Below, piece after piece: positions 14,952 through 28,461 of a DNA stretch of 33,221 nucleotides (the stretch's first letter is position 1; every line of letters begins with the position of its first letter). Location of the stretch: positions 1-33,221 of the forward strand of contig JBJKSS010000446.1 in assembly GCA_046703745.1 (NCBI GenBank), in the 5' to 3' direction. The stretch is from Spirochaetota bacterium (lineage in GTDB: Bacteria > Spirochaetota > GWE2-31-10 > JAFGQB01). Under the pieces are notes generated by a model. The model was given only the letters and a program-made list of their open reading frames with translations, did no database searches and had not been told where the DNA came from. Position numbers and translations under genes: made by a program.

Positions 14952-14961
14952 GACAATTGTC
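14952..14961. repeat. GACAATTGTC palindrome, copy 1 (intergenic, about 60 bp upstream of the mgtA -35)
   Basis: Read directly from the sequence. The flanks are ccgccgGACAATTGTCaagccg. Confidence 0.9.
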
Positions 14962-15018
14962 AAGCCGAAAACCCGGGATAAAAAAGAGAAAATAATTGTA
15001 TTATATTTTCCAATTTTC

Positions 15019-15047
15019 TTGACATTATTATTTTTAATCTATATATA
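15019..15047 (+). promoter_or_regulatory. Candidate sigma-70 promoter for mgtA
   Basis: TTGACA (15019-15024), a 17-nt spacer, then TATATA (15042-15047), which overlaps TATAAT at 15044-15049. Confidence 0.45.
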
Positions 15048-15178
15048 ATTAAATTGCTGCTAATACCATGATCAGGCATATATGATTATATAAGGGTTTT
15101 ACAAATATCAGGGGTTCTTATATCAGCATAAATGCTTGGGGTATCCGGCTATACCTTTAATCACAAGCTGTTGATCTT

Positions 15179-17824
15179 ATGAAGAATAAAATTAAACTTT
15201 CAAACAGAAACGACAAAAATTATCAAAAATTGTTCGAGCTTTGCAATTCAAAGGAAGATGAAGCCGTTGCAAGGATGAATTCCTCGGCAAGCGGGCTCTC
15301 CGGCGAAGAAGCCGAGGACAGGCTCAGGGAATTCGGAAGCAACCTTCTGTTCAGGGGGAAAAAGCATAATATTGCCATCGATCTTCTTTTAAGATTCAAG
15401 AACCCTCTCGTCATACAGCTTCTCGTGATATGCGTAGTTTCGCTTGTAATGGCCGACTTCAGATCGGCAACGGTTGTCGGCGGTATGATCTTCTTAAGTG
15501 TTTTTCTTGCATTCTTCCAGGAAAAAATGTCGGACAGGGCAGCAGAGGAGCTCCAGAAGCTCGTTCAGACAACGACAATTGTCATTCGTGAAGGCATTGA
15601 AGAGGAAATAATCATAAGGGACGTGGTTCCGGGCGACGTCGTGGTGCTTCAGGCAGGATCGATCATCCCCGCCGATTCGAGAATACTACAGGCAAAAGAT
15701 TTTTTCGTGAGTCAGTCCGCCTTGACCGGCGAGTCGATGCCGGTTGAAAAATTTGCCGCACCAAACAATCTTGATCTGAGGGAGCCGCTTTCATTCTCAA
15801 ACGCCTGTTTCCAGGGAAGCAATGTGGTGAGCGGCTCAGCGAAGGCACTGATAGTAAACACAGGGCAGAATACATTCCTCGGCGCCATTTCATCGACCCT
15901 CACGGAAGGAAAGGAAAAGACGAGCTTTGACAAGGGCGTAAAATCTTTCGTCTGGCTGATGATGAGGTTCATGATGGTCATGGTCACAGCCGTATTCATG
16001 ATCGTGGGGTTCACGAAATTTTCGAGCGCTAATCCCTGGCAGTCATGGATAAACGCTCTTTTATTCGCACTTTCCGTGGCGGTCGGCCTTACCCCCGAAA
16101 TGCTTCCCATGATAATAACGGTCTGCCTTTCGAAGGGCACGATTGCCATGTCCAAAAAAAAGGTAATCGTCAAAAAGCTTAAAGCCATACAGAATTTCGG
16201 CGCCATGAACATACTCTGCACGGACAAGACCGGCACGCTTACGCAGGACAACATAGTGCTTGAGAGGTATGTAGATGTCACCAACAGGAAAAGCGAGGAT
16301 GTCTTAAGATACGCATACATGAACAGTTTTTACCAGACCGGCCTGAAGAACCTGCTCGACAAATCGATCCTCTCCCACGAAGAGCTTGATGTCGAGAAAA
16401 CATGCAGGAAGGTGGACGAACTCCCGTTTGATTTCGTGAGAAAAAAAATGTCTGTCATAATCGAATACGAAGGCACAAATGTCATGATCTGCAAGGGTGC
16501 GGTTGAGGAAATATACTCGGTCTGCGACAGGTACCAGATCGATGACGATATTTATCCGCTTATTGATGTTATTAAAAACGACCTTTTCGAGGAATACCAG
16601 GAGTTAAGCGCCGATGGATACCGCGTGCTGGCAATAGCGTACAAGGAATTCCCCAGGACAAAGGATCTCTTTTCATCAGCCGATGAAAAGAACATGATTT
16701 TGCTCGGATACCTTGCGTTCTTCGATCCGCCCAAGGATTCTTCAAAAAAGGCCATAAAGGCCCTGAAAAATTCCGGCGTTGAAGTTAAAATTTTGACCGG
16801 CGACAACGAGCTGGTTACCAGAAAAGTCTGCCGCGATGTCGATATTGAAATAACAAACATGGTGACAGGCAGACAATTGTCGGAAATGGATGACGGGAAG
16901 TTCCGGGAGACCGTTAAGACATCGAATGTATTCGCAAGGCTCACGCCGTCCCAGAAAGAAAAGATCATCCAGACCCTGCGCGAGATGGGGAACGTGGTCG
17001 GATTCATGGGGGACGGGATAAACGACGCACCTGCGATGAAGGAGGCGGATGTGGGCATTTCGGTTGACACTGCTGTCGACATTGCAAAGGAATCCGCAGA
17101 CATAATTCTCCTCGAAAAGAGCCTCCTCGTGCTGGAGGACGGAATAATCGAAGGCAGAAAAATATTTTCCAATATAATCAAGTATATCAAGATGGGCGCA
17201 AGTTCGAATTTCGGCAACATGTTCAGTGTGGTTGGCGGCAGCTATTTCCTGCCGTTTTTGCCCATGGCGCCGATCCAGATATTGATCAACAACCTTCTTT
17301 ATGATTTTTCGCAGACCGGCATTCCCACGGATAATGTCGATGACGAATTCGTCAAGAAGCCGCACAAATGGAACATAAAATTCATCCGGAAGTTCATGAT
17401 TTTTATAGGACCGATAAGCTCGATTTTCGATTATGCGACTTTTTTCCTGATGCTGTATTTTTTCAACTGCATACTGTTTAAAAGCCCGGATACTTCGCCT
17501 GCAATGAAGGTGTTTTATGAAAAGCTTTTTCATACAGGATGGTTCGTCGAGTCACTTTTGACCCAGACGCTTATCGTACATATTATCAGGACAAACAGGG
17601 TTCCATTCTTCCAGAGCAGGGCAAGCGTCCTCATGACATTGTCCACCGTGGTTGTAATGGCAGCAGCGGTTATCCTGCCGTATTCACCGGCTGCTTCATA
17701 TATAGGGCTTGTGCCGCTTCCGATGATTTACTGGGCGTGGATCGCGGGATTCCTGACCGCTTACGGCATTCTCACGCACCTTGTGAAAACCTTTTTCAAC
17801 CGCAAAATTGATACCGGAGAATAA
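15179..17824 (+). CDS. mgtA: Magnesium-translocating P-type ATPase
   Basis: 881 aa. N-terminus GLSGEEAEDRLREFGSN, phosphorylation site CTDKTGTLTQ, TGDN, hinge MGDGINDAPAMKEADVGISV, and the MgtA-type FDFVRKKMSV segment. Confidence 0.9.
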   Translation: MKNKIKLSNRNDKNYQKLFELCNSKEDEAVARMNSSASGLSGEEAEDRLREFGSNLLFRGKKHNIAIDLLLRFKNPLVIQLLVICVVSLVMADFRSATVVGGMIFLSVFLAFFQEKMSDRAAEELQKLVQTTTIVIREGIEEEIIIRDVVPGDVVVLQAGSIIPADSRILQAKDFFVSQSALTGESMPVEKFAAPNNLDLREPLSFSNACFQGSNVVSGSAKALIVNTGQNTFLGAISSTLTEGKEKTSFDKGVKSFVWLMMRFMMVMVTAVFMIVGFTKFSSANPWQSWINALLFALSVAVGLTPEMLPMIITVCLSKGTIAMSKKKVIVKKLKAIQNFGAMNILCTDKTGTLTQDNIVLERYVDVTNRKSEDVLRYAYMNSFYQTGLKNLLDKSILSHEELDVEKTCRKVDELPFDFVRKKMSVIIEYEGTNVMICKGAVEEIYSVCDRYQIDDDIYPLIDVIKNDLFEEYQELSADGYRVLAIAYKEFPRTKDLFSSADEKNMILLGYLAFFDPPKDSSKKAIKALKNSGVEVKILTGDNELVTRKVCRDVDIEITNMVTGRQLSEMDDGKFRETVKTSNVFARLTPSQKEKIIQTLREMGNVVGFMGDGINDAPAMKEADVGISVDTAVDIAKESADIILLEKSLLVLEDGIIEGRKIFSNIIKYIKMGASSNFGNMFSVVGGSYFLPFLPMAPIQILINNLLYDFSQTGIPTDNVDDEFVKKPHKWNIKFIRKFMIFIGPISSIFDYATFFLMLYFFNCILFKSPDTSPAMKVFYEKLFHTGWFVESLLTQTLIVHIIRTNRVPFFQSRASVLMTLSTVVVMAAAVILPYSPAASYIGLVPLPMIYWAWIAGFLTAYGILTHLVKTFFNRKIDTGE
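15574..15583. repeat. GACAATTGTC palindrome, copy 2 (inside mgtA)
   Basis: Read directly from the sequence (acaacGACAATTGTCattcg). Confidence 0.9.
16872..16881. repeat. GACAATTGTC palindrome, copy 3 (inside mgtA)
   Basis: Read directly from the sequence (aggcaGACAATTGTCggaaa). It shares the 14-mer CAGACAATTGTCGG with copy 5. Confidence 0.9.
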
Positions 17825-17826
17825 TT

Positions 17827-18630
17827 ATGAAAAGCCTGCTCAACGCTTTGCATGAGGGAAGACTCGTGGAACTTCCAACGAACAACAAGGAAGAAGTTCT
17901 CGAATACCTCGCCCTGCTCATAGAAGCCATACCGGATATCGGTACTGGCGAAGATCTTGTCAAGGCGATTAATTTGAGGGAATCCCAGGCAAACACCGCA
18001 CTCGGTTTGGGCGTGGCATGCCCGCATGTGAGGACGAAGCAGGAAGGGGAATTATTGTGCGCCGTCGGATGGTCGCCTGAAGGCATCGATTACAACGCCC
18101 CTGACGGCAAAAGGGTGCATCTTGTAATAATGTATTATATTCCCGAATCACAGAAAAACTCCTATTTGAAGGAGCTCTCCGGGCTTGCAAAGGCCATAAA
18201 GGAAACAAACGGCATACAAATTTCTTCCAATATAATTGACATTCAAAGTATAAGAAACAAGCTTCTCGACTGGGTGGAGCTGGCCATAGACAAGGCGATC
18301 CCGGACTCAAAGGCGAGGATGATCAAGCTTGAAGAAAAAAATGCCGCCATGGAAAACCTTGTCAAACCACCGGGCGTTATGGAAGCATTAAAATCAAAAA
18401 TAGCCGTGATTCCCTTTTCGGTGTTCATCCTCGATGACATGAAATTTTATGTGCTTTCAAAAAATCAGGAGATTATCGATGTGCTTGAGCAGACAAAAGA
18501 CATTGCCAGACAGTTTAACGGCGGCGGCGTTTTCAATTACAGGGATTACCAGATATCTGTTGTTTCAAATTCCCTGTATTCAAAAAACAGGATGGTGTAC
18601 GATTGTATAGCCGTTAAATTCAGCCTGTAA
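17827..18630 (+). CDS. PTS EIIA type-2 (PtsN/EIIA-Ntr-like) domain protein with an uncharacterised ~110-aa C-terminal extension
   Basis: It starts 2 nt after the mgtA stop codon, with GGAGAA upstream. The N-terminal ~150 aa have the EIIA-2 layout and a candidate phospho-His motif (ALGLGVACPHVR). I do not recognise the C-terminal part. Confidence 0.7.
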   Translation: MKSLLNALHEGRLVELPTNNKEEVLEYLALLIEAIPDIGTGEDLVKAINLRESQANTALGLGVACPHVRTKQEGELLCAVGWSPEGIDYNAPDGKRVHLVIMYYIPESQKNSYLKELSGLAKAIKETNGIQISSNIIDIQSIRNKLLDWVELAIDKAIPDSKARMIKLEEKNAAMENLVKPPGVMEALKSKIAVIPFSVFILDDMKFYVLSKNQEIIDVLEQTKDIARQFNGGGVFNYRDYQISVVSNSLYSKNRMVYDCIAVKFSL

Positions 18631-18648
18631 AACGGGGTTCGTTTTTTT
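18629..18648 (+). terminator. Weak candidate intrinsic terminator after the mgtA/EIIA operon
   Basis: AAAACG-gggtt-CGTTTT followed by a T run. The stem is short and AU-rich. Confidence 0.3.
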
Positions 18649-18708
18649 GCCGCCGGGGGACAAAGGTAAATTCATGTTGGTATTAATAAATTTTGACAAG
18701 GATCTAAA

Positions 18709-19683
18709 ATGAAAACAGTAGAATTCAAAAAGGGACTTCACCTTATCAAAAAAGGCATTTATGCCTATCTTCAACCGGACGGTTCATACGGATTAAGCAA
18801 TGCCGGTCTCGTTACAAGCGGCGGTAAAACATTACTTGTGGACACCCTTTATGATTTAAAACATACAGGCGAAATGCTCGACTTAACCGACAGGATTTCG
18901 GTCAAAATAGACCGTCTTGTAAACACTCATGCCCATGGCGATCATTATTTCGGCAACCAGCTTGTCAGGGGCGCAGAAATCATCATGACAAAAAAAAATG
19001 CCGATGAAATTTTCAGGATAACCCCTGCCGCAATGTCCATGCTTGTCAATCTTTCCAAAATCATGTTCGGATTCGGAAAATATCTTCAAAAATCTGTGGG
19101 AAGATTCAGCTTCAGGGACATTTCAATAATCAGGCCCGACATAACATTTGAGAACGAGTTGAATTTCGCCGTTGGACACAGGAAAGTCAAACTGATCGAA
19201 GTGAAAAACGCCCATTCCAAAAGCGATGTTCTCGTTTTATTGCCCGATGACAGGGTATTATTCGCAGGGGACATTGCTTTCATAGATGTAACGCCTGTAA
19301 TATGGGAGGGGCCTGTAAGCAACTGGATCAAAGCCTGCGATATGATCCTCAAAATGAATGTTGATTTAATCGTTCCAGGCCATGGTCCGGTTTCTGACAA
19401 GAGGGGCATAAGGCTCCTCAGGAAATATTTCGAATACACTCATGACGAGGCTAAAAAACGCTATAACAAGGGCATGACATTTTATGAAGCGGCAGTTGAT
19501 ATTGACCTGAAGGAATTCGCAGAATGGAGGGTGCCTGAAAGGATTGTGTCCAATGTTTTCGTTTATTACCAGGAATTCACGAAAGGCAATTCCAGGCTGC
19601 ATCCGTTGAAAATGTTTTATCTTATGTCCAGATATTTGAAAGATAAAAATATCCGGTGGATGAAAAAAGCCGACGTTTTATGA
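18709..19683 (+). CDS. MBL-fold metallo-hydrolase
   Basis: HxHxDH motif VNTHAHGDHYFGN, with later conserved His/Asp positions (VKNAHSKSD, AGDIAF, VPGHGP). AAGGA lies 7 nt upstream. Confidence 0.8.
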   Translation: MKTVEFKKGLHLIKKGIYAYLQPDGSYGLSNAGLVTSGGKTLLVDTLYDLKHTGEMLDLTDRISVKIDRLVNTHAHGDHYFGNQLVRGAEIIMTKKNADEIFRITPAAMSMLVNLSKIMFGFGKYLQKSVGRFSFRDISIIRPDITFENELNFAVGHRKVKLIEVKNAHSKSDVLVLLPDDRVLFAGDIAFIDVTPVIWEGPVSNWIKACDMILKMNVDLIVPGHGPVSDKRGIRLLRKYFEYTHDEAKKRYNKGMTFYEAAVDIDLKEFAEWRVPERIVSNVFVYYQEFTKGNSRLHPLKMFYLMSRYLKDKNIRWMKKADVL

Positions 19684-19706
19684 TCCGGCCGGATTATATC
19701 CTCATA

Positions 19707-20312
19707 TCAATTGTGTGTCACGACCACTTTGGAATGCAGCAGCTTGATCCCTTCCTGCCTTGCCTGTAAAATCTGCGATATGGAAACATTTGTCATCTCT
19801 TCATGTTTCAGTATGGTATCTTCCAGTGAGCCCCTGTATATGAAATATTCATCTTTTTCGGATATGTTCGGAATGACTTTTTTGGTGAACAGGAAATGAT
19901 TTATTGGCCGGTTTTTTCCGTTGTTGTTGCCTTCGGTCAGATCGACACGGTGATTTTCATAAACAAGGAAGCAGTGGATCATCGGCAGATATGGCAGGTT
20001 GTATTTTGCCAGTATTGATGCCGTTCCTGTTACAATCTCTTCATTCATCGCGTAAACGCCGACCATTTTGCCGATTGGGACAGAAAGCTCCTGCGCAAGG
20101 GTTGCGATTACCGCATGTTTTGTGGTGCATGAGCCATGACCCTCCCTGAAGAGTATCAGTATATCATCCCGTGTCGAGTTGTAGCCGTAAGGCATTTCAT
20201 GAACATACAGACACGCTTCATGCAGGGCTTTTATGCCCAGGCTCAGGAATTTTTCAGTGACAATCCCCTCCCCTCTGATCTGCGCATCAGGAAAGACTTT
20301 ATAATTATCCAT
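19707..20312 (-). CDS. Hypothetical protein, transglutaminase-like (Cys-His-Asp papain-fold) candidate
   Basis: GHGSCTTKHAVIATLAQELSVP...MIHCFLVYENHRVDLTEG fits the Cys...His...Asp spacing of the transglutaminase core. The ATG at 20312 has AAAGAGGTG upstream. The ORF-track start at 20321 is a GTG inside that RBS. Confidence 0.5.
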   Translation of the reverse strand: MDNYKVFPDAQIRGEGIVTEKFLSLGIKALHEACLYVHEMPYGYNSTRDDILILFREGHGSCTTKHAVIATLAQELSVPIGKMVGVYAMNEEIVTGTASILAKYNLPYLPMIHCFLVYENHRVDLTEGNNNGKNRPINHFLFTKKVIPNISEKDEYFIYRGSLEDTILKHEEMTNVSISQILQARQEGIKLLHSKVVVTHN

Positions 20313-20427
20313 TTGACCCACCTCTTTAATTTAATTATATACAACGTGATGGTTAAATTTCTGTTAATTTACCTTTTTTATTTATGAATTTTTGATTTGT
20401 GATATTATGCCGGGGTTAACCAAAAGC

Positions 20428-20437
20428 GACAATTGTC
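20428..20437. repeat. GACAATTGTC palindrome, copy 4 (divergent promoter region)
   Basis: Read directly from the sequence (aaaagcGACAATTGTCaattta). Confidence 0.9.
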
Positions 20438-20500
20438 AATTTAAATATGCAGTAAGCTTTTTATGTGCGATTCTTCTGATTTCGCTAGATTCATATTGAC

Positions 20501-20521
20501 TTACATAACAATGTTATGTAA
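20501..20521. promoter_or_regulatory. 21-bp perfect palindrome TTACATAACAaTGTTATGTAA overlapping a TTGACT hexamer; candidate TetR-type operator
   Basis: 10-bp arms around a single central base. It shares the core TAACAATGTTAT with the site upstream of the TetR gene at 24168-24179 (opposite strand). Confidence 0.5.
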
Positions 20522-20621
20522 CACTAATTAAACAAGTCATATTTCAAAACATCAACTATTTGAGTCAATTGGATTTCAATCTTTGACGATTGGAATATTT
20601 TTATGTGGAAGCGTAAAGAGT

Positions 20622-22736
20622 ATGGAAACATTTGATGATTTCAAACATGAAAAAATAAATCCGCCCGGCAAGAAAAGCGGCGCCCGCTATCTCGTTCTCT
20701 ATTTTTTAATTGCATTCATCTGGTCCTGGGCGGCCTGGTGCCCGCTGGTTCTTTCGGGGCTGAAGATCATTCCAATGCCTGACAAAATTTTGAAGATAAT
20801 CACTTATCCTGCTGCACTGATCGGTGTTTTTGGGCCGATGATAGGGGCTCTTTTCGCATTATCCAGGGAAAAGGGCAAGGGTGCCATAAAGGAATACCTG
20901 AAAAGTTTCCTGGATTTTCGTCTCGGATGGAAGGCTTACCTGTTCCCGTTTTTAATACTCGGCGGATGTTCGGCCATCGCATGGATACTTCCCGAACTGT
21001 TCGGAGAGAAAAGGATGCCGATGTTGATGCCTGTCTGGGCCTTTGTCCCGTATTTACTGATAATGATCCTGTTGGGCGGCGGCCAGGAAGAATTGGGCTG
21101 GAGGGGTTATGCTCTTCCCAGACTTGAAAAAAAACTGGGCATCTGGCCGGCCAATGCATTGCTCGGCATTATATGGGCATGCTGGCATTTGCCGTTGTGG
21201 TTCATCCCCGGCAGCTTTCAAACATACATGAATTTCGGAGGTTTTGTTCTGTTGACTCTCGGCTATTCTTACATTTTTTCATGGATACGCGATATCTCAG
21301 GGGATAAATCCTTTGTCGGCCCTTTTGTGCACGGCCTGGCATATTTGTACGGCCTGAAATTCCTGAATGATGAAAATCCTATATTCAGTTCATCGGTATC
21401 ATTCGGCGGCCCGGATAATACGATACCGGGACAATTGCAGGCGGTACGGGGTCTTTATTTGATAAATAAAAATCTCTGGAAATCATATACAGGAGAAGAA
21501 TACATCTGGACGAATGATTATGCAAAGAGTTTTGTTAAAAACAGCATAAAAAAACTCAATGATATAAATGCGGATAATTCCAAATTCACATTGAGCGTTT
21601 TCCTCTGGGCATGGTGCTGGGACATGACAAAACAGGATGAGAACGATACAACTATAATTGATAATCTTGGTATACCGGATGACGGGAGAGGCTATAACGG
21701 AGGAGATGGGGGATGTCATTTGAGTGAAGCCGGGTGCAAGAGGCTTGCAAAAGCGATGTGGTGGTTATTGGCCCGTATTGCGGGGTGGGATGGACATCCT
21801 GGGGTAATAGTTGCGAACCATCCGCCGGTGCTCGACGATATCCCGGATAAAACTGTTACAACAGGGCAAGAATTAACTTTTACCGTTTCTGCAACTGATC
21901 CTGACAGCCAAAATTTAACTTATTCATCTTCAGTGCTGCCGGACGGCGCAACTTTTAACCCTTTGTCAGGTACCTTCAGATGGACACCGTCAGCGTCCGG
22001 CACTTATAACATCAGTTTCCTGGTATCCGACGGTGAATTAACGGATACACAAGACTTGACTATTACAGTGAAAGATCCTGTTGTTATTCAACCTGAAGCC
22101 GGGCTGCAGGTATATTACAAATTCGATGAAATTAAGAATAACACCGTCACCGATTATTCGGAGAACAATCTCAACGGTGCGGTTCACGGCTCCCCCGAAT
22201 TGACACAGGGTAAATCGGGTAAAGCCTTGAATTTCGGTGGTGTAGATGATTACATCGACCTTGGAATCAGTGATTTCAATATGTCAAAGACGAACGAATT
22301 GACTATAACATTCTGGTTATATATAGATCCCGCAAATCCTGCCGGCATTGTGCCGATAATACAGCGGGGCGCATATGTTTATCCTTTCCAGGTAGCTATC
22401 GAGAATAACAACTTGTTAATATTCAAAACAAGAACATCGACATCAACCGGTTCGATAACTTCATGGCTGTATTCAAAAAGGTTAAATGTCGGGCAATGGT
22501 ATCATGTAGCTGTAACTTATGCTTCAGGAACCAGACATATTTATATCGACGACGATAATACTCTCGGAAATTACGACAATTGGACAGGTGATTTATTTTT
22601 TTATTACAATAATTATAATACGAATATGGCAACGGGTAACGTGACCCCGCCCTATTTCAGGGGAATGATCGACGAATTGAGAATATACAACAAGGCGTTG
22701 AGCTCGGATGAAATCAAGGCTATCTACAATCAATAA
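20622..22736 (+). CDS. Fusion protein: CPBP-family intramembrane glutamic protease, unassigned linker domain, Ig/cadherin-like domain, LamG (concanavalin-A-like lectin) domain
   Basis: CPBP motifs: GGGQEELGWRGYALPRL and ACWHLPLWF. The Ig-like segment is PPVLDDIPDKTVTTGQELTFTVSATDPDSQNLTYSS...GTFRWTPSASGTYNISFLVSDGELTD. LamG_3-type end: KALNFGGVDDYIDLG...WYHVAVTY...FRGMIDELRIYNKALSSDEI. The ORF track starts at a TTG (20583); the first in-frame ATG is at 20622. Confidence 0.75.
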   Translation: METFDDFKHEKINPPGKKSGARYLVLYFLIAFIWSWAAWCPLVLSGLKIIPMPDKILKIITYPAALIGVFGPMIGALFALSREKGKGAIKEYLKSFLDFRLGWKAYLFPFLILGGCSAIAWILPELFGEKRMPMLMPVWAFVPYLLIMILLGGGQEELGWRGYALPRLEKKLGIWPANALLGIIWACWHLPLWFIPGSFQTYMNFGGFVLLTLGYSYIFSWIRDISGDKSFVGPFVHGLAYLYGLKFLNDENPIFSSSVSFGGPDNTIPGQLQAVRGLYLINKNLWKSYTGEEYIWTNDYAKSFVKNSIKKLNDINADNSKFTLSVFLWAWCWDMTKQDENDTTIIDNLGIPDDGRGYNGGDGGCHLSEAGCKRLAKAMWWLLARIAGWDGHPGVIVANHPPVLDDIPDKTVTTGQELTFTVSATDPDSQNLTYSSSVLPDGATFNPLSGTFRWTPSASGTYNISFLVSDGELTDTQDLTITVKDPVVIQPEAGLQVYYKFDEIKNNTVTDYSENNLNGAVHGSPELTQGKSGKALNFGGVDDYIDLGISDFNMSKTNELTITFWLYIDPANPAGIVPIIQRGAYVYPFQVAIENNNLLIFKTRTSTSTGSITSWLYSKRLNVGQWYHVAVTYASGTRHIYIDDDNTLGNYDNWTGDLFFYYNNYNTNMATGNVTPPYFRGMIDELRIYNKALSSDEIKAIYNQ

Positions 22737-22892
22737 ATTTGTTGATTTGTCTGCAATTCAATCTGAATAGTTGGCCAAAAAACATTTCCGGGCAAGGTTA
22801 ATGATATTTTATCCTTGCCCAACTATTATAGGAATTATATAATGTTTACTATAACACAATGAACATGAAGTAATGTTCCTTAAGGAAGATTT

Positions 22893-23654
22893 ATGACGGC
22901 ATTTCTAAACATTCTAAAAATATTGATTGCCCTTGTTGTTTTTTCAATGCTGACATCCTGCAGCAACGAACCGGAAATACATAAAGCTGCGGGAAAAGGC
23001 GATCTTGTCAAGCTCGAAGAGCTGATAAAGGCTGGCACATCCATTGATGCTACGAATGATTATAATGAAACGCCTTTACATATAGCCGCTGCAAAAAGCA
23101 GGTCCGAAGCGGTCAGGCTGTTGTTGTCAAAAGGCGCTGATATAAATGCCAGGGATGAGTTTGGCAACACTCCCCTTATAAATGCTGTTTCTGTAATCTC
23201 GAACAGAGAATCCCAGGAAGAAGTTATAAAAATACTGCTTGATAACAAAGCCGATATTCATGCAAAAAACAGGCATTACGGAGAAGTCGCATTGCACAGG
23301 GCTGCAATGAACGGGCATAAGGAAGCGGTTATTTATTTTTTAAACAACGGTATTGATCCTGATATAAGGGATAAAAAGGGCCAAACGCCATTATATGACG
23401 CAAGTTTGTGGGGACATCTCGATATAGTTAAAATCCTGATTGAAAAAAAGGCGGATATCAATGCTGTCAATATTGATGGTAATACTCCACTGCATGGTGC
23501 GGCGCTGTTTGACCGTCTTGATGTGGCGGAGTATTTGATAAAGGCAGGTGCCGATATAAAAAAGACTAACAATAAAAATGAAACACCAATGGATGTTGCA
23601 AAAAATGCAGAGAGCAAAAAAATAACGGAACTGTTAAAAAATCGTAAACAATGA
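22893..23654 (+). CDS. Ankyrin-repeat lipoprotein
   Basis: Signal peptide with lipobox LTSC, followed by about 6 ANK repeats (NETPLHIAAAKSRSEAVRLLLSKGADINARDEFGNTPL...). Confidence 0.85.
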   Translation: MTAFLNILKILIALVVFSMLTSCSNEPEIHKAAGKGDLVKLEELIKAGTSIDATNDYNETPLHIAAAKSRSEAVRLLLSKGADINARDEFGNTPLINAVSVISNRESQEEVIKILLDNKADIHAKNRHYGEVALHRAAMNGHKEAVIYFLNNGIDPDIRDKKGQTPLYDASLWGHLDIVKILIEKKADINAVNIDGNTPLHGAALFDRLDVAEYLIKAGADIKKTNNKNETPMDVAKNAESKKITELLKNRKQ

Positions 23655-23828
23655 AAATTGGGATTGCAAACAGACATTTTATAAACCAATCCTCAATAAA
23701 TCGGGAAGAAACTAAACGACAAAAAGTGTAAACGGGTTTAATTTGAAAGGAAAAAAGGCTCATTGCGAAGAGTTATTAAAAGATTGGGAATTAAACAGTA
23801 TATCGAGCCTTTAAAGTGAGTAAAATAT

Positions 23829-23993
23829 ATGATAAATGAAATAGTACAAGCAATACCGGCAAAAGATTACAAAGTATATATATATTTTGTTAATGGTAAA
23901 ATCAAATTGTATGATACTCTGCCTCTTTTGGAAAAGGGTGTTTTTCGAAAATTATACAATTCTTTATTCTCATCTGTTAAAATACAAAATTGA
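23829..23993 (+). pseudogene. Truncated DUF2442-family gene (54 codons; C-terminal third missing)
   Basis: My own translation is MINEIVQAIPAKDYKVYIYFVNGKIKLYDTLPLLEKGVFRKLYNSLFSSVKIQN*. This matches the DUF2442 N-terminal pattern (..dy.l.v.F.nG....yD..pll..g.F..L.....F..V.v) but stops before the conserved W...D segment. It falls below the ORF-track length cutoff. Confidence 0.45.
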
Positions 23994-24140
23994 TAATTTT
24001 CCACATTTTGTTCCTTCCGCTCTCACCATATTACACTTTAATTTTAAAAGTCAAACCGAATTTCATGCCCGCGTCGACCTTCGGTGTTCACCCCCAACAT
24101 TAAAAAACTAACCCTCATCTTTCATTATCAGAGAATTAAT

Positions 24141-24179
24141 TTGACTATTTATAACAACGATGTTATTATAACATTGTTA
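24141..24179 (+). promoter_or_regulatory. Candidate promoter and operator of the TetR gene
   Basis: TTGACT (24141-24146), a 17-nt spacer, then TATTAT (24164-24169). Overlapping half-sites are ATAACA-acga-TGTTAT-t-ATAACA-t-TGTTA. Confidence 0.5.
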
Positions 24180-24205
24180 AGTTAAAGATTTACGGGAATG
24201 ATGTT

Positions 24206-24793
24206 ATGAGAGCCGCCAATCCAGGCCTGGTAAAAAAAATCAAGTCAATCACTATTAAAGAAATTTCAAGAAGCGGTGTTGAAAGCATTTCCATGAGAAA
24301 CATTGCAAGGCTTGCAGAAATAACTCCAACTACAATTTATTATTATTTCAGGGATAAAATGGCTCTTTTTGAAAGCATAAAAAAAGACGCTTTTGAAAAA
24401 CTGAATGATTTTGTTTTATCCCGTATTAATCCGGGCGATTCATTCTCAAAACAGACAGAAAGCCTTGTCAGGGCTTTTACCATTTGGCTAATCGACAACC
24501 GCAGAATCTCCGAGCTGATTTTCGACAAACTACCGCCGAATATCAAAGCAAATGAAGAAACAATGGCCCATTATTATATCCTTAGCAATAAGGTGCTTGA
24601 AATCATTAATCAAGGCAGGGAAACAGGAGAATTCAAATTCGATGATGCAGAGGTGGAGGCCAATGTGGGCCTGGGAATGATTTTCGGCATCGTAAAGCTC
24701 CATTTTAACAAACGTCTTTCTCCCAGGTTCTGGGATGACATAGAGCCTCTGGTTGAAAGAATGACACAGATCATTCTGAATTCTTTAAAATAA
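24206..24793 (+). CDS. TetR/AcrR-family transcriptional regulator
   Basis: N-terminal HTH ISMRNIARLAEITPTTIYYYFRDKMALF, followed by a helical C-terminal ligand domain of typical length (195 aa in total). Confidence 0.85.
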   Translation: MRAANPGLVKKIKSITIKEISRSGVESISMRNIARLAEITPTTIYYYFRDKMALFESIKKDAFEKLNDFVLSRINPGDSFSKQTESLVRAFTIWLIDNRRISELIFDKLPPNIKANEETMAHYYILSNKVLEIINQGRETGEFKFDDAEVEANVGLGMIFGIVKLHFNKRLSPRFWDDIEPLVERMTQIILNSLK

Positions 24794-24816
24794 AATATTA
24801 TTAAGGATAAACAAAC

Positions 24817-25515
24817 ATGAAAAAAATTATCGCAGTTGTAATACTCACAATCATGCCTGTTTTGATATTCGGGGTAGTCAATAAGAAAATTTCAATTGAG
24901 CTCGATGCAGGCAAGAATTACAGGCATGCATACAATTACGCCGGGTTGAAAATTTATCTTATTCCCCAGATCGCAGTCTGGATCGAAGATGAAAAAGGCA
25001 ATTATATCGACACGGTTTACGTCACCTACAGGTCTGCAAAATCCAGGTGGCGAGGCGGATTCAACCTCAGAAGGCCGTCTGCTCTTCCCGTTTGGTCGCA
25101 CAAGAGGGGGATAAAATATAAAGACGGTATGTACATGCCAACTACGAATGATCCGCTTCCTGACGCCATGACCGGTGCAACGCCTCCCGGTTCATTCAAA
25201 AAGGAATGGATCGTGCCCGAAGGATTCAAATTTACAAAAATTGTAATCAGGGTTGAAGTAAACAACTCCTTTGATTATAATGAAAATTACAGGAAGGATC
25301 TGCCGAATGACAGTCCCTTTTACAACGATGTAAACGGTCAGCCATCGATAGTTTATGAAGGCAAAATTGATTTGTCAGACAATAAGGCACAGGTGATTCC
25401 TTCGCCTGCGGGGCATGGTGATGCTGCGGGCAGGAATGGCGAGTTGACAAATGATCTTGCAAACATTACTGATGCTTTGCAGATCATGGAAGGAATAAAG
25501 GTTAGTGTGGAATGA
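24817..25515 (+). CDS. Secreted protein, DUF2271-like
   Basis: N-terminal signal/TM segment. PQIAVWIEDEKGNYIDTVYV...RRPSALPVWSHK and MTGATPPGSF resemble the DUF2271 pattern as I recall it. The family assignment is tentative. Confidence 0.6.
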   Translation: MKKIIAVVILTIMPVLIFGVVNKKISIELDAGKNYRHAYNYAGLKIYLIPQIAVWIEDEKGNYIDTVYVTYRSAKSRWRGGFNLRRPSALPVWSHKRGIKYKDGMYMPTTNDPLPDAMTGATPPGSFKKEWIVPEGFKFTKIVIRVEVNNSFDYNENYRKDLPNDSPFYNDVNGQPSIVYEGKIDLSDNKAQVIPSPAGHGDAAGRNGELTNDLANITDALQIMEGIKVSVE

Positions 25516-25527
25516 TTATAAAGCAAT

Positions 25528-26163
25528 TTGATCGGCGGCATGAAGGAATTCTCCTACATAATCGGTTGTGAAAAAACAGGCGATGCAGCCGTGATAGACC
25601 CGGGGGGCGAGGTTGAAAGAATCATCGAAGAGGCAAAAAAAGCCGGATTATCAATTAAATACATCTTTAATACCCATTACCATGCGGATCATACATGCGG
25701 CAACGGTAAATTGAAGAAAAAAACCGGGGCAAAAATCCTGATCCACAGACTGGATTTGAAACAACTCGTTCAGCCTGTAAATCTGGTAAAAATCGGGACT
25801 TTCATGTTCCAGCAGTCACCCAAACCCGATATAATAATCGACAAGGATGAATTCATCAGTGTAGGAGAAATTAAAACAAGGATAATTCACACGCCGGGTC
25901 ACACGAGGGGCGGGATATGCTTCCTTGCGGGGAGCAATCTTTTCACAGGGGATACGCTTTTCGTGGGCGACAGCGGGAGGACGAACCTACCCGAGGGGGA
26001 CAGGGCCGCACTGGGCGCATCGATCCGCATGCTGATGAACACCCTGCCTGACGACACGATTGTCTGGCCCGGGCATGATTACGGACCCACACCGCATTCC
26101 ACGCTGGCCTGGGAAAAACGGAACAACATAAATGCAGTGGAGTACGGATTTTATTCAGATTGA
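25528..26163 (+). CDS. MBL-fold metallo-hydrolase (glyoxalase II / hydroxyacylglutathione hydrolase-like); the N-terminus may be frameshifted
   Basis: Motifs: FNTHYHADHTCGN, HTPGHTRGG, GDTLFVGDSGRTNL, PGHDYG. The ORF-track start is a TTG. See the finding on the out-of-frame ATG at 25512. Confidence 0.8.
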   Translation: MIGGMKEFSYIIGCEKTGDAAVIDPGGEVERIIEEAKKAGLSIKYIFNTHYHADHTCGNGKLKKKTGAKILIHRLDLKQLVQPVNLVKIGTFMFQQSPKPDIIIDKDEFISVGEIKTRIIHTPGHTRGGICFLAGSNLFTGDTLFVGDSGRTNLPEGDRAALGASIRMLMNTLPDDTIVWPGHDYGPTPHSTLAWEKRNNINAVEYGFYSD

Positions 26164-26334
26164 GCCACAAGTTGAATCATTGAAAAAGGTAACCATGTTA
26201 TCAGGCGTTGATTTTACAATTATCTTGTAAAATGTATCTTTTTATTTTATATTTAAAAGCAACCCTGACTTATCGGGATAGAATTTAATTAACCTATCAA
26301 TGCATTCCATTATAATTAACCTGAGGAAACATTT

Positions 26335-27087
26335 ATGGACATGAACAATATTAAGACACTGCTTCAAAATGTGAAGGACAACAGGGTCTCAATAGATGAG
26401 GCCCTGACAAAATTGCGGGATTTCCCTTTCAAGGATCTGGATTTTGTCAAACTCGATTACCACAGGACTCTCAGAAAGGGATTCGGCGAGGTGATTTACT
26501 GCAAGAGCAAAACTTTGGAACAGATCGGGGCGATTGCGAAAGAGCTCAAGGCTTCCGGTAAAACCGGGATACTCTATACCAGGGTCGATAATGTAAAGGC
26601 CAAACTGCTACTCTCCATTGACAGCAGCCTGGAATACAACCCGGAAGCATCTATGGTTTTTAAAAAACTCGACTGTACCGGCAATGGCAAACCTATACTG
26701 GTTTTAACGGGCGGTACTTCGGACATTCCGATTGCAGAGGAGGCATTCTGCACCGCATCGAGCATGGGCTGCAATGTGGAGAAACACTATGACGTTGGCG
26801 TTGCGGGCATACACAGGCTCTTCGCCATTTACGACAGGCTCCAGGAGGCCGGAGTGATCATAGCGATCGCCGGTATGGAAGGTGCACTCGCCTCGGTTGT
26901 TGCCGGGCTGGTAAGCGTACCGGTAATTGCGGTACCCACATCGATTGGCTATGGCGCAAATTTCCAGGGGTTGTCCCCGCTTCTTTCGATGCTCAATTCA
27001 TGCAGCCCGGGAATAGCGGTTGTGAACATTGACAACGGATTCGGCGCGGGGTATCTTGCGTCTATGATTTTGAATAATAATGAATAA
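26335..27087 (+). CDS. larB: Nickel-pincer cofactor biosynthesis protein LarB (PurE-like carboxylase/hydrolase)
   Basis: LVLTGGTSDIPIAEEA...GVAGIHRL...AIAGMEGALASVVAGLVSVPVIAVPTSIGYGANFQGLSPLLSMLNSCSPGIAVVNIDNGFGAG is the LarB/AIR-carboxylase-like core. GAGGAA RBS upstream. Confidence 0.85.
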   Translation: MDMNNIKTLLQNVKDNRVSIDEALTKLRDFPFKDLDFVKLDYHRTLRKGFGEVIYCKSKTLEQIGAIAKELKASGKTGILYTRVDNVKAKLLLSIDSSLEYNPEASMVFKKLDCTGNGKPILVLTGGTSDIPIAEEAFCTASSMGCNVEKHYDVGVAGIHRLFAIYDRLQEAGVIIAIAGMEGALASVVAGLVSVPVIAVPTSIGYGANFQGLSPLLSMLNSCSPGIAVVNIDNGFGAGYLASMILNNNE

Positions 27088-27231
27088 TTGCTATTGCCAA
27101 AAATTTCATGAAAGAATATATTTGATACACAATAATCCTTCAATTAAAGCCGTCATTATTTAATGAGGAGAATGCTTAAAGCGGTTTTTAAGACAGACAA
27201 TTGTCGGTCATTATTGTGACATCAATAGCAA
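27088..27231 (+). other. larB-larC spacer with two nested 9-bp perfect complementary pairs (candidate structured RNA leader or MITE-like insert)
   Basis: TTGCTATTG (27088-27096) pairs with CAATAGCAA (27223-27231). CACAATAAT (27128-27136) pairs with ATTATTGTG (27210-27218). GACAATTGTC copy 5 lies inside. Confidence 0.4.
27196..27205. repeat. GACAATTGTC palindrome, copy 5 (36 nt upstream of the larC start)
   Basis: Read directly from the sequence (aagacaGACAATTGTCggtcat). Confidence 0.9.
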
Positions 27232-27240
27232 GGATAAAAA

Positions 27241-28461
27241 ATGAAAATTTTATACATAGACGGATTCTCCGGATTAAGCGGGGACAAACTGGCTGCGGGC
27301 TTGCTTGCCATTACCGACAATGCAGAATCATTGAAGCAAAAATTGAATTCCTTAAGCATAAACGGCGAGTTTGAGATCAAGGTTTCTGAAAAAAGCGTCA
27401 TGGGGATCAACTCCCTCAAATTCGATGTTATTCTCAAAAATCATCACGATCATTCCCATGACGACGGGCATCATCATGAGCACCACCACAGGGGCTTGAG
27501 GGAAATCACCGACATTATAAACGGCTCGAGCCTCGATGAAAAGGTAAAAAGCGACGCGATTAATGTATTCACGATCCTGGGCAGGGCAGAATCAAAAGTG
27601 CACAATGTCGACATCAAGAAAATCCATTTCCATGAAGTCGGTGCAGTCGACTCGATTGTAGATATAGTTTCTGCATGCATTCTCATGAACGAAATAAAAC
27701 CCGACAAAATTTATTCTTCGCACATCGCTTTGGGAAGCGGCTTTGTAAATGCGGCGCACGGGAAGCTTCCTGTGCCCGCACCGGCAACCGCCGAGATACT
27801 GGCCGGCGTGCCTGTTTGCAGCACGGACGTAAAGGGAGAGCTTACCACCCCTACAGGCGCAAGCATTATCAAATATTATGCGAAGGAATACGGCCTGATG
27901 CCCGACATGACGGTTGAAAAAACAGGGTACGGCGCGGGCACAAAGGATTTCGAAATACCCAATGTTGTGAGAATCCTCCTCGGCAGCGCGGAGGAAAACA
28001 ATGGTAATGTCGAGACGATCGTAAAGATTGAAACCAACATAGATGACGCAACCCCGGAACAGACCGGGTTTTTGTTCGACAGGCTCTTTAAAAAGGGAGC
28101 GCTCGACGTGTTCATAACCCCGATAGTCATGAAAAAAAACCGGATGGCCCAGCTTTTAACCGTCTTGTGCAAACCCGGGGACAGAGCCCTGTTTGAGAGT
28201 GAAATATTCAATAATTCCACGACTTTCGGCATAAGAAGCACCAGTTACCGTCGTGTGATCCTCGGCCGCGAGGAAAAAATTGTCAACGTCGACGGCATCG
28301 ACATTAGGGTAAAGCTCGGTTTCCTCGAAGGAAGGCTCGTGCGTACATCCGTGGAATATGAATCGGTCAGAGAATTCACGGAAAAAACGGGACTGTCCTA
28401 CAACGACGCGAGTGAAAGGATCAACCTTGCAATCGCCGCCAAATTTAAAACTGGAGTTTAA
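27241..28461 (+). CDS. larC: Nickel insertion protein LarC (DUF111 family, CTP-dependent nickel chelatase of the NPN cofactor)
   Basis: N-terminus MKILYIDGFSGLSGDKLAAGLL, His-rich tract HHDHSHDDGHHHEHHH, and HFHEVGAVDSIVDIV. The length of 406 aa is typical. AAGGA RBS upstream. Confidence 0.88.
   Translation: MKILYIDGFSGLSGDKLAAGLLAITDNAESLKQKLNSLSINGEFEIKVSEKSVMGINSLKFDVILKNHHDHSHDDGHHHEHHHRGLREITDIINGSSLDEKVKSDAINVFTILGRAESKVHNVDIKKIHFHEVGAVDSIVDIVSACILMNEIKPDKIYSSHIALGSGFVNAAHGKLPVPAPATAEILAGVPVCSTDVKGELTTPTGASIIKYYAKEYGLMPDMTVEKTGYGAGTKDFEIPNVVRILLGSAEENNGNVETIVKIETNIDDATPEQTGFLFDRLFKKGALDVFITPIVMKKNRMAQLLTVLCKPGDRALFESEIFNNSTTFGIRSTSYRRVILGREEKIVNVDGIDIRVKLGFLEGRLVRTSVEYESVREFTEKTGLSYNDASERINLAIAAKFKTGV

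Follow-up and report, generated by a model that had tools for sequence, protein, structure and literature searches.

The 10-bp palindrome GACAATTGTC recurs in the 33,221-nt stretch of DNA analysed here (the window: positions 1 to 33,221 of the forward strand of contig JBJKSS010000446.1, assembly GCA_046703745.1, from a Spirochaetota bacterium) and is strongly over-represented throughout the genome of its host. The closest published phenomenon is HIP1 of cyanobacteria. On balance, GACAATTGTC is best read as a HIP1-like genomic word that acts at the level of the DNA and that is probably the docking site of a lineage-specific family of tandem ribbon-helix-helix (RHH) proteins. HIP1 and other over-represented palindromes were first described some three decades ago, and there is no agreement on their reader or function.

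The genome that holds the window (G000) is a metagenome-assembled genome (MAG) of 3.32 Mb in 526 contigs with 40% G+C, and it encodes five FlaA sheath proteins, which mark it as a spirochaete. The word, a perfect palindrome, is present in 106 copies against 3.7 to 8.6 expected under Markov models of orders 0 to 5, a 17- to 28-fold over-representation at a density of 1 site per 31 kb. It is the most over-represented palindromic 10-mer of the genome and the third word family overall, and a control word with the letters reversed has 4 copies. A first-pass annotation of the window had offered a genome-wide over-represented word as one of several explanations, and these counts bear it out. Under the order-1 model the enrichment grows with length, from 0.65-fold for CAATTG through 3.6-fold for ACAATTGT to 28-fold for the full 10-mer; CAATTG by itself is not enriched (1.15-fold at order 3, 0.65-fold at order 1). 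Variants with one mismatch at the eight inner positions (for example GACATTTGTC and GACAACTGTC) number 107 against 92 expected, and those with a mismatch at the two outer positions are 4.3-fold enriched. The word is strict, because inner one-mismatch variants occur at about chance level and change is tolerated only at the outer positions. Among the literature matches listed, which comprise primers, eukaryotic sites and one Pseudomonas LysR site, there is no report of GACAATTGTC as a genomic word.

The flanks are unique at all 106 sites, and the word is therefore not the core of a longer repeat in G000. A longer dispersed repeat of the repetitive extragenic palindromic (REP), bacterial interspersed mosaic element (BIME) or miniature inverted-repeat transposable element (MITE) type was rejected for G000 for want of shared flanks; the first-pass annotation had named such a repeat as an outcome that would refute its proposal. 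Clustering of sites is not significant below 3 kb and reaches about twofold over expectation at the 7-kb scale. When the genome is divided into quintiles of local G+C, the two richest contain 66 of the 106 sites and the two poorest contain 19, and base composition alone predicts equal site frequency at 34% and 46% G+C. The sites avoid AT-rich, foreign-looking DNA, and native DNA is preferred.

Genes were called with a simple caller of our own based on open reading frames (ORFs), which gave 3,174 genes and a coding fraction of 88.6%. Coding DNA holds 88 of the 106 sites (83%). The other 18 fall between genes or at the edge of one, a share that does not significantly exceed the non-coding fraction of 11.4% (P=0.055) and gives no sign of promoter enrichment; positions along genes are uniform. 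The coding sites show a marked bias of frame, with 69 reading xxG ACA ATT GTC, 13 reading xGA CAA TTG TCx and 6 reading GAC AAT TGT Cxx. Placement of this kind, mostly coding and biased in frame, cannot in general be explained by a promoter operator. Thr-Ile-Val (TIV) tripeptides are spelt ACA ATT GTC in 100 of 295 cases, against 7.1 expected from codon usage (14-fold), and 69 of these 100 spellings follow a G, against 1.6 expected; the tripeptide itself is 1.2-fold over-represented. Because the excess of the spelling is far greater than that of the tripeptide, the force acts on the DNA itself. An artefact of codon usage or of a peptide motif was rejected on the same comparison, codon pairs such as ACAATT being at expectation, and the two minor frames and the intergenic DNA are likewise enriched for the word. 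The word is imposed on the DNA, using the frame that tolerates it best, at times with a change of residue.

The phyletic range of the word was examined in 301 genomes sampled across the phylum, a genome with 20 or more copies being counted as enriched. Seven genomes are enriched, namely G006 (139 copies), G009 (135), G000 (106), G017 (45), G003 (31), G001 (24) and G013 (20), and all of them belong to families f1 and f4 of a single order with 20 species representatives. The other genomes have 10 or fewer copies, which is the level of the reversed-word control. Unenriched members are found inside the enriched families, G002 in one and G011 and G015 in the other. Of the 24 sites in G001, which belongs to the same genus as G000, 15 can be aligned to G000 and 5 of these 15 are exact there, compared with 3.3% of control 10-nt windows in the same alignments being identical (P=9e-5, for this one genome pair). 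The sites turn over, yet they are retained or regained about 10 times more than their surroundings. None of three coding sites of G009 that have orthologues in G000, a comparison across families, is shared, and most sites therefore arose separately in each lineage.

The enriched genomes differ in the setting of their sites. G009 has unique flanks, 9 of 15 sampled sites lie in the TIV frame of real genes, and its intergenic sites extend to ATA(C/G)GACAATTGTC(G/C)TAT (that is, ATAsGACAATTGTCsTAT). G003 has three intergenic modules with a tandem pair, TACGACAATTGTCGTA-nnn-GTAAGACAATTGTCGT, whose centres are 20-21 bp apart; this spacing corresponds to two helix turns, an arrangement that would be typical of cooperative protein binding. 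Of 18 sites sampled in G006, about 13 belong to a longer element, tcgataacgcgcGACAATTGTCgcataaaaatt, that is embedded in arrays of TGACACATATG / CGACGCATATGCG units, and the others are TIV-frame gene sites. The intergenic arrays of G006 also hold more palindromes of the GAC...GTC form (TGACACATATGTGTCA, GACGCATATGCGTC) around GCGACAATTGTCGC units, and have the look of a BIME-like mosaic (for example C5:28.5 kb and C8:5.9-6.8 kb). The two largest contigs of G006, C1 and C2 (327 kb), have no site against about 15 expected. In the 200 kb of them that were sampled, the tetranucleotide signature is that of the site-bearing contigs, orthologues of G000 genes are present, and ACAATTGT occurs once against about 7 expected from composition. 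In the site-bearing contigs every ACAATTGT is part of a full 10-mer, and words with two mismatches number 62 against 88.5 expected. C1 and C2 may be long precisely because they are without the repeat arrays that hold most sites of G006. A conserved site-free domain is doubtful, since the G000 counterparts of these contigs are not clearly site-poor: they carry 3.1-3.7 sites in every 100 kb, and the value for the site-bearing contigs is 2.3-4.3.

The first link to a candidate reader comes from the 18 non-coding sites of G000, two of which lie about 100 nt upstream of paralogous genes for proteins of about 175 amino acids, members of a family of about 180 amino acids:
G000 C309:566-1102, family member
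G000 C168:2222-2746, family member

A search with a single member as query gave 19 matches in G000, 6 in G001, 10 in G003, 9 in G006, 142 in G009 and 13 in G017; G018 and G019 gave a single weak match apiece, and the remaining 12 genomes of the order gave none. With a profile built from 16 members, 11 genomes out of the order's 20 contain the family and 0 of the 281 others of the phylum sample do. Multiple copies are confined to six genomes, all among the seven enriched ones. By sequence it has no match in Pfam, NCBIfam or the PDB, and a large protein collection holds only eight relatives, one of them named 'predicted DNA-binding protein'.

The AlphaFold (AF2) model of a family protein has a predicted local distance difference test (pLDDT) score of 76.5 and a predicted template-modelling (pTM) score of 0.66. 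It consists of two strand-helix-helix units (strand 10-17 with helices 19-32 and 36-57, and strand 74-81 with helices 82-92 and 97-115), followed by a helix and three strands. The best Foldseek matches in the PDB are chains of about 100-120 residues from the F-plasmid relaxosome, which we take to be TraY (probability 1.0-0.8, E from 0.035, TM score 0.58-0.60 by target length); VirC2, DndE and single-chain Arc come next. The predicted fold is that of a single-chain tandem RHH pseudo-dimer. An RHH unit of the MetJ, Arc or CopG kind reads one short dyad of 8-10 bp. The idea that the family is an HUH nuclease, suggested by an H-x-H after the second strand, was dropped, as the histidines vary among paralogues and the model is of the RHH type.

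The genes of the family themselves carry the word. In 11 of the 13 full-length paralogues of G000 (30-67% identity), the Gln-Leu that is conserved at about nucleotide 430 of the gene is spelt CAATTG, usually within ACAATTGT, whereas Gln-Leu dipeptides elsewhere have the CAATTG spelling in 11.7% of cases. The exact 10-mer stands at this place in 7 of 10 copies of G003, and the family copies of G001, G006 and G017 have an exact or one-off 10-mer there. In 4 of the 13 G000 copies the core also precedes, by 27-55 nt, a promoter-like block of strong conservation. Furthermore, the surroundings of the G000 family genes, up to 1.5 kb away, contain 7 exact sites where 1.5 would be expected (P=9e-4). 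On this co-occurrence and placement, the RHH proteins are proposed as candidate readers of the word. In G003, the last 85 nt of a family gene, through the palindrome, are identical in C109:1-85 and C124:1-85; past the palindrome one of the two continues as gene and the other as unrelated DNA, and this fusion at the word may be a recombination joint or an effect of assembly.

Three further observations concern the family and its possible competitors as reader. A block of about 60 nt (TTTGTAAAsGATTyCCnnGTTTTnGGCGTTTAATATATAnAAGGAG) stands upstream of 13 of 13 full-length family genes of G000 (for example at C309:490-565) and of the G009 copies; its conservation is higher than that of the coding sequence, and it may represent a leader or else a promoter whose spacer is constrained. 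The G009 copies form a repeat of about 790 bp whose sole ORF encodes the tandem-RHH protein, with no transposase and no clear terminal repeats (for example C15:24710-25228 and C17:8460-8987). One copy of the palindrome lies 46 nt upstream of a gene for a TetR-family regulator (G000 C213:1530), which is an alternative candidate reader.

If the RHH proteins read the word, each pseudo-dimer would dock on one 10-bp dyad, and sites would persist since binding, or a process begun by binding, is favoured. The word itself is kept about 20-fold above expectation across the chromosome in this spirochaete and a few relatives, and within genes this happens through codon choice and an occasional amino-acid change. 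Candidates for what binding would achieve are chromosome organisation, recombination and element maintenance. A further step, which we put forward tentatively and as less likely to hold than to fail, is that the word and the gene of about 180 codons form one system: a self-multiplying single-gene element whose product docks on a host-wide 10-bp word, the word perhaps being a recombination joint. In that event GACAATTGTC would be the first word of the HIP kind for which a reader has been identified, and a mobile gene family and a chromosome-wide address would co-evolve. A signal of the HIP1 kind in an uncultured spirochaete order is tractable, as it is sparse (about 100 sites); it switches on and off between close relatives. 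Should the link to the reader hold, what such words do would become an experimental question, the candidate being a small protein suited to production in E. coli.

Several observations weigh against a reader of this kind. The density of 1 site per 31 kb is far below that of HIP1 or of uptake sequences, and the Foldseek E-values behind the predicted fold are weak (0.035 and above). Within 600 bp, only 3 of the 106 sites of G000 are in or beside family genes, and the repeat that makes up the 142 copies of G009, which are 87-93% identical, has no word inside it or nearby. G013 (87% complete) has 20 sites and no detected family gene, although repeats are often lost in assembly. The enriched genomes are related to one another, coming from two families, so that their co-occurrence with the family counts as few independent events, and the putative reader is assigned only by co-occurrence and site placement. 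The sampled sites of G006 lie mostly in longer mosaic intergenic repeats, and different processes may be at work in different genomes. Finally, the gene calls behind the coding counts come from a simple ORF caller.

HIP1 (GCGATCGC) of cyanobacteria is described in one source as 15- to 300-fold over-represented and conserved within and between ORFs, with no peptide, RNA or regulatory role and with a link to nucleoid structure (PMC5861425). Two other papers link it to methyltransferases and recently also to gene transfer (PMC4390886, PMC13756078). Both words are short perfect palindromes that are over-represented in and between genes and that behave as motifs of the DNA rather than of peptides or promoters. 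Both are conserved between related genomes beyond the background, and both are restricted to a lineage with exceptions among relatives. GACAATTGTC differs in its AT-rich core, its length of 10 bp and its Spirochaetota host. Its density is about 30 times lower, and the near-one-site-per-gene hyper-abundance of HIP1 is not seen in G000. No cognate methyltransferase was found for it in the four Pfam families searched, and it co-occurs with a candidate reader family whose genes carry the word.

Known RHH proteins offer a partial parallel for the candidate family. Its predicted fold, with two beta-alpha-alpha units in one chain, resembles TraY of the F plasmid and VirC2 of the Ti plasmid; however, it has no sequence similarity to them, it has an additional C-terminal helix and three-stranded module, and it reaches up to 142 chromosomal copies. 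The relaxase family PF03432 gave no match over the cut-off in the 20 genomes of the order, other relaxase families not having been searched, and the coupling protein PF02534 of type IV secretion systems (T4SS) was found in none of the 20. An accessory function in a conjugative relaxosome was rejected on these two negatives. MetJ reads its short palindromic met-box (AGACGTCT) as an RHH dimer, and its boxes can be arrayed in tandem on one face of the helix. The pairs of G003, 20-21 bp apart, are comparable to such tandem boxes; the met-boxes differ in belonging to the promoters of one regulon, against the roughly 100 mostly coding sites of GACAATTGTC.

The five copies in the window, together with the genes that bear on their reading, are the following:
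14952..14961, exact copy, intergenic, 53 nt past a truncated AraC-type ORF and 217 nt ahead of mgtA
15574..15583, exact copy within mgtA, frame acG ACA ATT GTC (Thr-Thr-Ile-Val), the dominant coding frame of the genome
16872..16881, exact copy within mgtA, frame aGA CAA TTG TCg (Arg-Gln-Leu-Ser)
20428..20437, exact copy, intergenic, with a 204-aa unknown ORF (minus strand) and a CPBP/LamG gene (plus strand) diverging from the gap 20322-20582 that holds it
27196..27205, exact copy 35 nt ahead of a LarC-type (Ni_insertion) gene and 108 nt past a LarB-like (AIRC) gene
15179-17824, P-type cation ATPase, MgtA-like, from the Pfam scan
26335-27087, AIRC (LarB-like) protein, from the Pfam scan
27241-28461, Ni_insertion (LarC) protein, nickel insertion, from the Pfam scan

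The first-pass annotation had reported these five copies at the same start positions, three of them intergenic and two within mgtA, and had judged them far beyond chance. All of this stands: dinucleotide-preserving shuffles predict 0.05 copies, and none of 100 shuffles gave five. Its names for the MgtA-like, LarC and LarB-like genes agree with the Pfam scans as well. Both of the 8/10 variants that it listed are present, GACAATTGCA at 21430 and GACAATTGGA, the latter at 22575, one base from the position it had given; as a class, variants with two mismatches are at chance (19 found, 18.9 expected). Its suggestion of a host-genome feature without copies in the AT-rich blocks also fits, as there is none in the AT-rich block of 1-14.9 kb and the trend holds genome-wide. 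All five copies lie in a stretch of 41-47% G+C, and none lies in the block of 28-35% G+C at 1-13 kb. Five copies on one contig have a P of about 0.012. The window copies are ordinary members of the genome-wide set, forming a dense patch in GC-richer native DNA; they are no special array and no local regulatory circuit.

This bears directly on the attraction the first-pass annotation had seen in a metal-related regulon, in which a dimeric, metal-responsive regulator would use GACAATTGTC as its operator and so link mgtA with larC. Among the five copies of the window, the three intergenic ones include two that stand ahead of metal-related genes. However, the word has 106 copies genome-wide, 83% of them coding, the enrichment in upstream regions that the annotation had proposed to look for does not appear, the non-coding excess falling short of significance (P=0.055), and the genes beside the 18 non-coding sites are functionally unrelated. 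Across genomes, no common gene was found beside intergenic sites beyond a generic ABC ATPase similarity. About 60 nt separate the copy ahead of mgtA from the -35-like hexamer TTGACA, which stands downstream of it and before the gene. Footprinting, which the annotation had proposed, found none of the three mgtA-associated sites kept in the congener G001, whose MgtA is 86% identical: the upstream region at the equivalent of 14952 is not alignable, the equivalent of 15574 reads ATA ACT ACT GTT (Ile-Thr-Thr-Val), and that of 16872 reads GACAACTGTC, with one synonymous Leu change. For larC no close orthologue was retrieved, the best match being 41% identical and from another phylum, and looking up the exact protein gave no entry. 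A metal operator is accordingly very improbable, and the copies near mgtA and larC should not be read in annotation as evidence of a shared regulon. The annotation's other option, a methylation or restriction-related site with a CAATTG core, is also weakened, though far less so. On this reading, which has also been proposed for HIP1, the word would accumulate through the activity of such an enzyme or because methylatable sites are selected. An orphan methyltransferase or a repair nuclease for a CAATTG-core sequence, with the RHH family as a bystander, would account for a word as strict as an enzyme site, with inner one-mismatch variants at chance, and the patchy phyletic pattern is what a mobile driver would leave. 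The depletion of near-cognates in the site-bearing contigs of G006, where ACAATTGT is always completed to the 10-mer, points the same way, and two papers report that two methyltransferases recognise internal HIP1 sequences (PMC4390886, PMC13756078). Set against this, CAATTG alone is not enriched, and a drive by Vsr-type T:G repair would be without its partner in G000 and G009, where no C5 methyltransferase match was found. PF01555, PF02086 and PF02384 yielded no enzyme that G000, G006 and G009 share and that G002 and G011 lack; among these five incomplete MAGs no co-occurring methyltransferase was found in PF01555, PF02086, PF02384 or PF00145, other families not having been searched. To our knowledge, no type II enzyme has a 10-bp palindromic site. 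On this evidence methylation, restriction or biased repair is an unlikely origin of the word. A BamHI-like restriction-modification (R-M) pair was excluded as the driver, being absent from G009. The type II pair in G000 (C501:9755-13279) is decayed, with a truncated SPPY-type N4/N6 methyltransferase and a fragmented BamHI/BglII-like endonuclease, and its methyltransferase is 71% identical to that of an intact pair in G006 contig C33.

Two further explanations keep the word at the DNA level and give it another purpose. One takes it as the site of some other chromosome-organising protein, in the manner of Noc and its Noc-binding sites (NBS), SlmA and its SlmA-binding sites (SBS), MatP and matS, or ParB and parS, with the RHH family merely containing the word. 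These systems too have tens to about a hundred palindromic sites, scattered through genes at uneven density. Their sites are 12-16 bp long and degenerate, and the dimeric readers are conserved, single-copy and of ParB, TetR or MatP type. GACAATTGTC resembles them in having about 100 palindromic sites per chromosome, mostly in genes and regardless of promoters, and its density is uneven, with none of about 15 expected sites in G006 C1 and C2, 9 in 38 kb of G009 contig 1 and 5 in 12 kb of the window; the link of HIP1 to nucleoid structure in the source cited above (PMC5861425) agrees with such a role. It differs from them in being exact, in its patchy range within one order and in a candidate reader that is a multi-copy RHH protein. 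Moreover, genera of one family seldom differ by the gain or loss of core functions of this kind, the G006 contigs without sites are perhaps long simply for want of repeat arrays, and their G000 counterparts are not clearly site-poor. An organiser other than the RHH family is thus a rather improbable reader. The other explanation is a signal for DNA uptake or transfer, akin to the DNA uptake sequence (DUS) of Neisseria and the uptake signal sequence (USS) of Pasteurellaceae or to scattered sites like an origin of transfer (oriT); DNA with the word would be taken up or mobilised in preference, and recombination would spread the word through the core genome by molecular drive. Here the likeness lies in a genome-wide, lineage-specific word that sits in the most tolerant frame, is rarer in foreign DNA (the recently acquired AT-rich DNA of G000) and turns over, so that site positions differ between families while site number is kept. 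DUS and USS are asymmetric, occur about once per kb and have a competence pilin or the uptake machinery as their receptor. GACAATTGTC is palindromic, and we know of no uptake sequence that is; its density of 1 per 31 kb is about 30 times lower than theirs. The closest folds of the linked protein are the relaxosome accessory proteins TraY and VirC2, and a correlation of HIP1 with T4SS appears in a 2026 report (PMC13756078), but searches of the order's 20 genomes detected neither PF02534 nor PF03432. An uptake or transfer signal is, in our estimate, an improbable account of the word.

G000 contains other dispersed words and elements besides the palindrome. The non-palindromic 11-mer GGGGACAGAGC has 66 copies with unique flanks (for example at C3:705, C19:7344, C19:9181 and C87:308), and its 10-mer cores are 32-35-fold over the order-3 expectation, which is above the palindrome. 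It represents a second dispersed word, possibly strand-oriented like Chi or the FtsK orienting polar sequences (KOPS), and one copy abuts a palindrome site (C216:21755). Words of the TTGAGAATGCA and TGAGAATGA type form a third, with about 60 copies or more, unique flanks and an 8-11-fold excess over expectation (for example in C2, C26:321 and C72:389). In addition, a hairpin element with a perfect 14-nt stem, GGAAACAAGGGGTTgnaAACCCCTTGTTTCC, is dispersed at C7:978, C78:9673, C93:2460 and about 45 other places, and resembles a repeat of the REP or terminator type.

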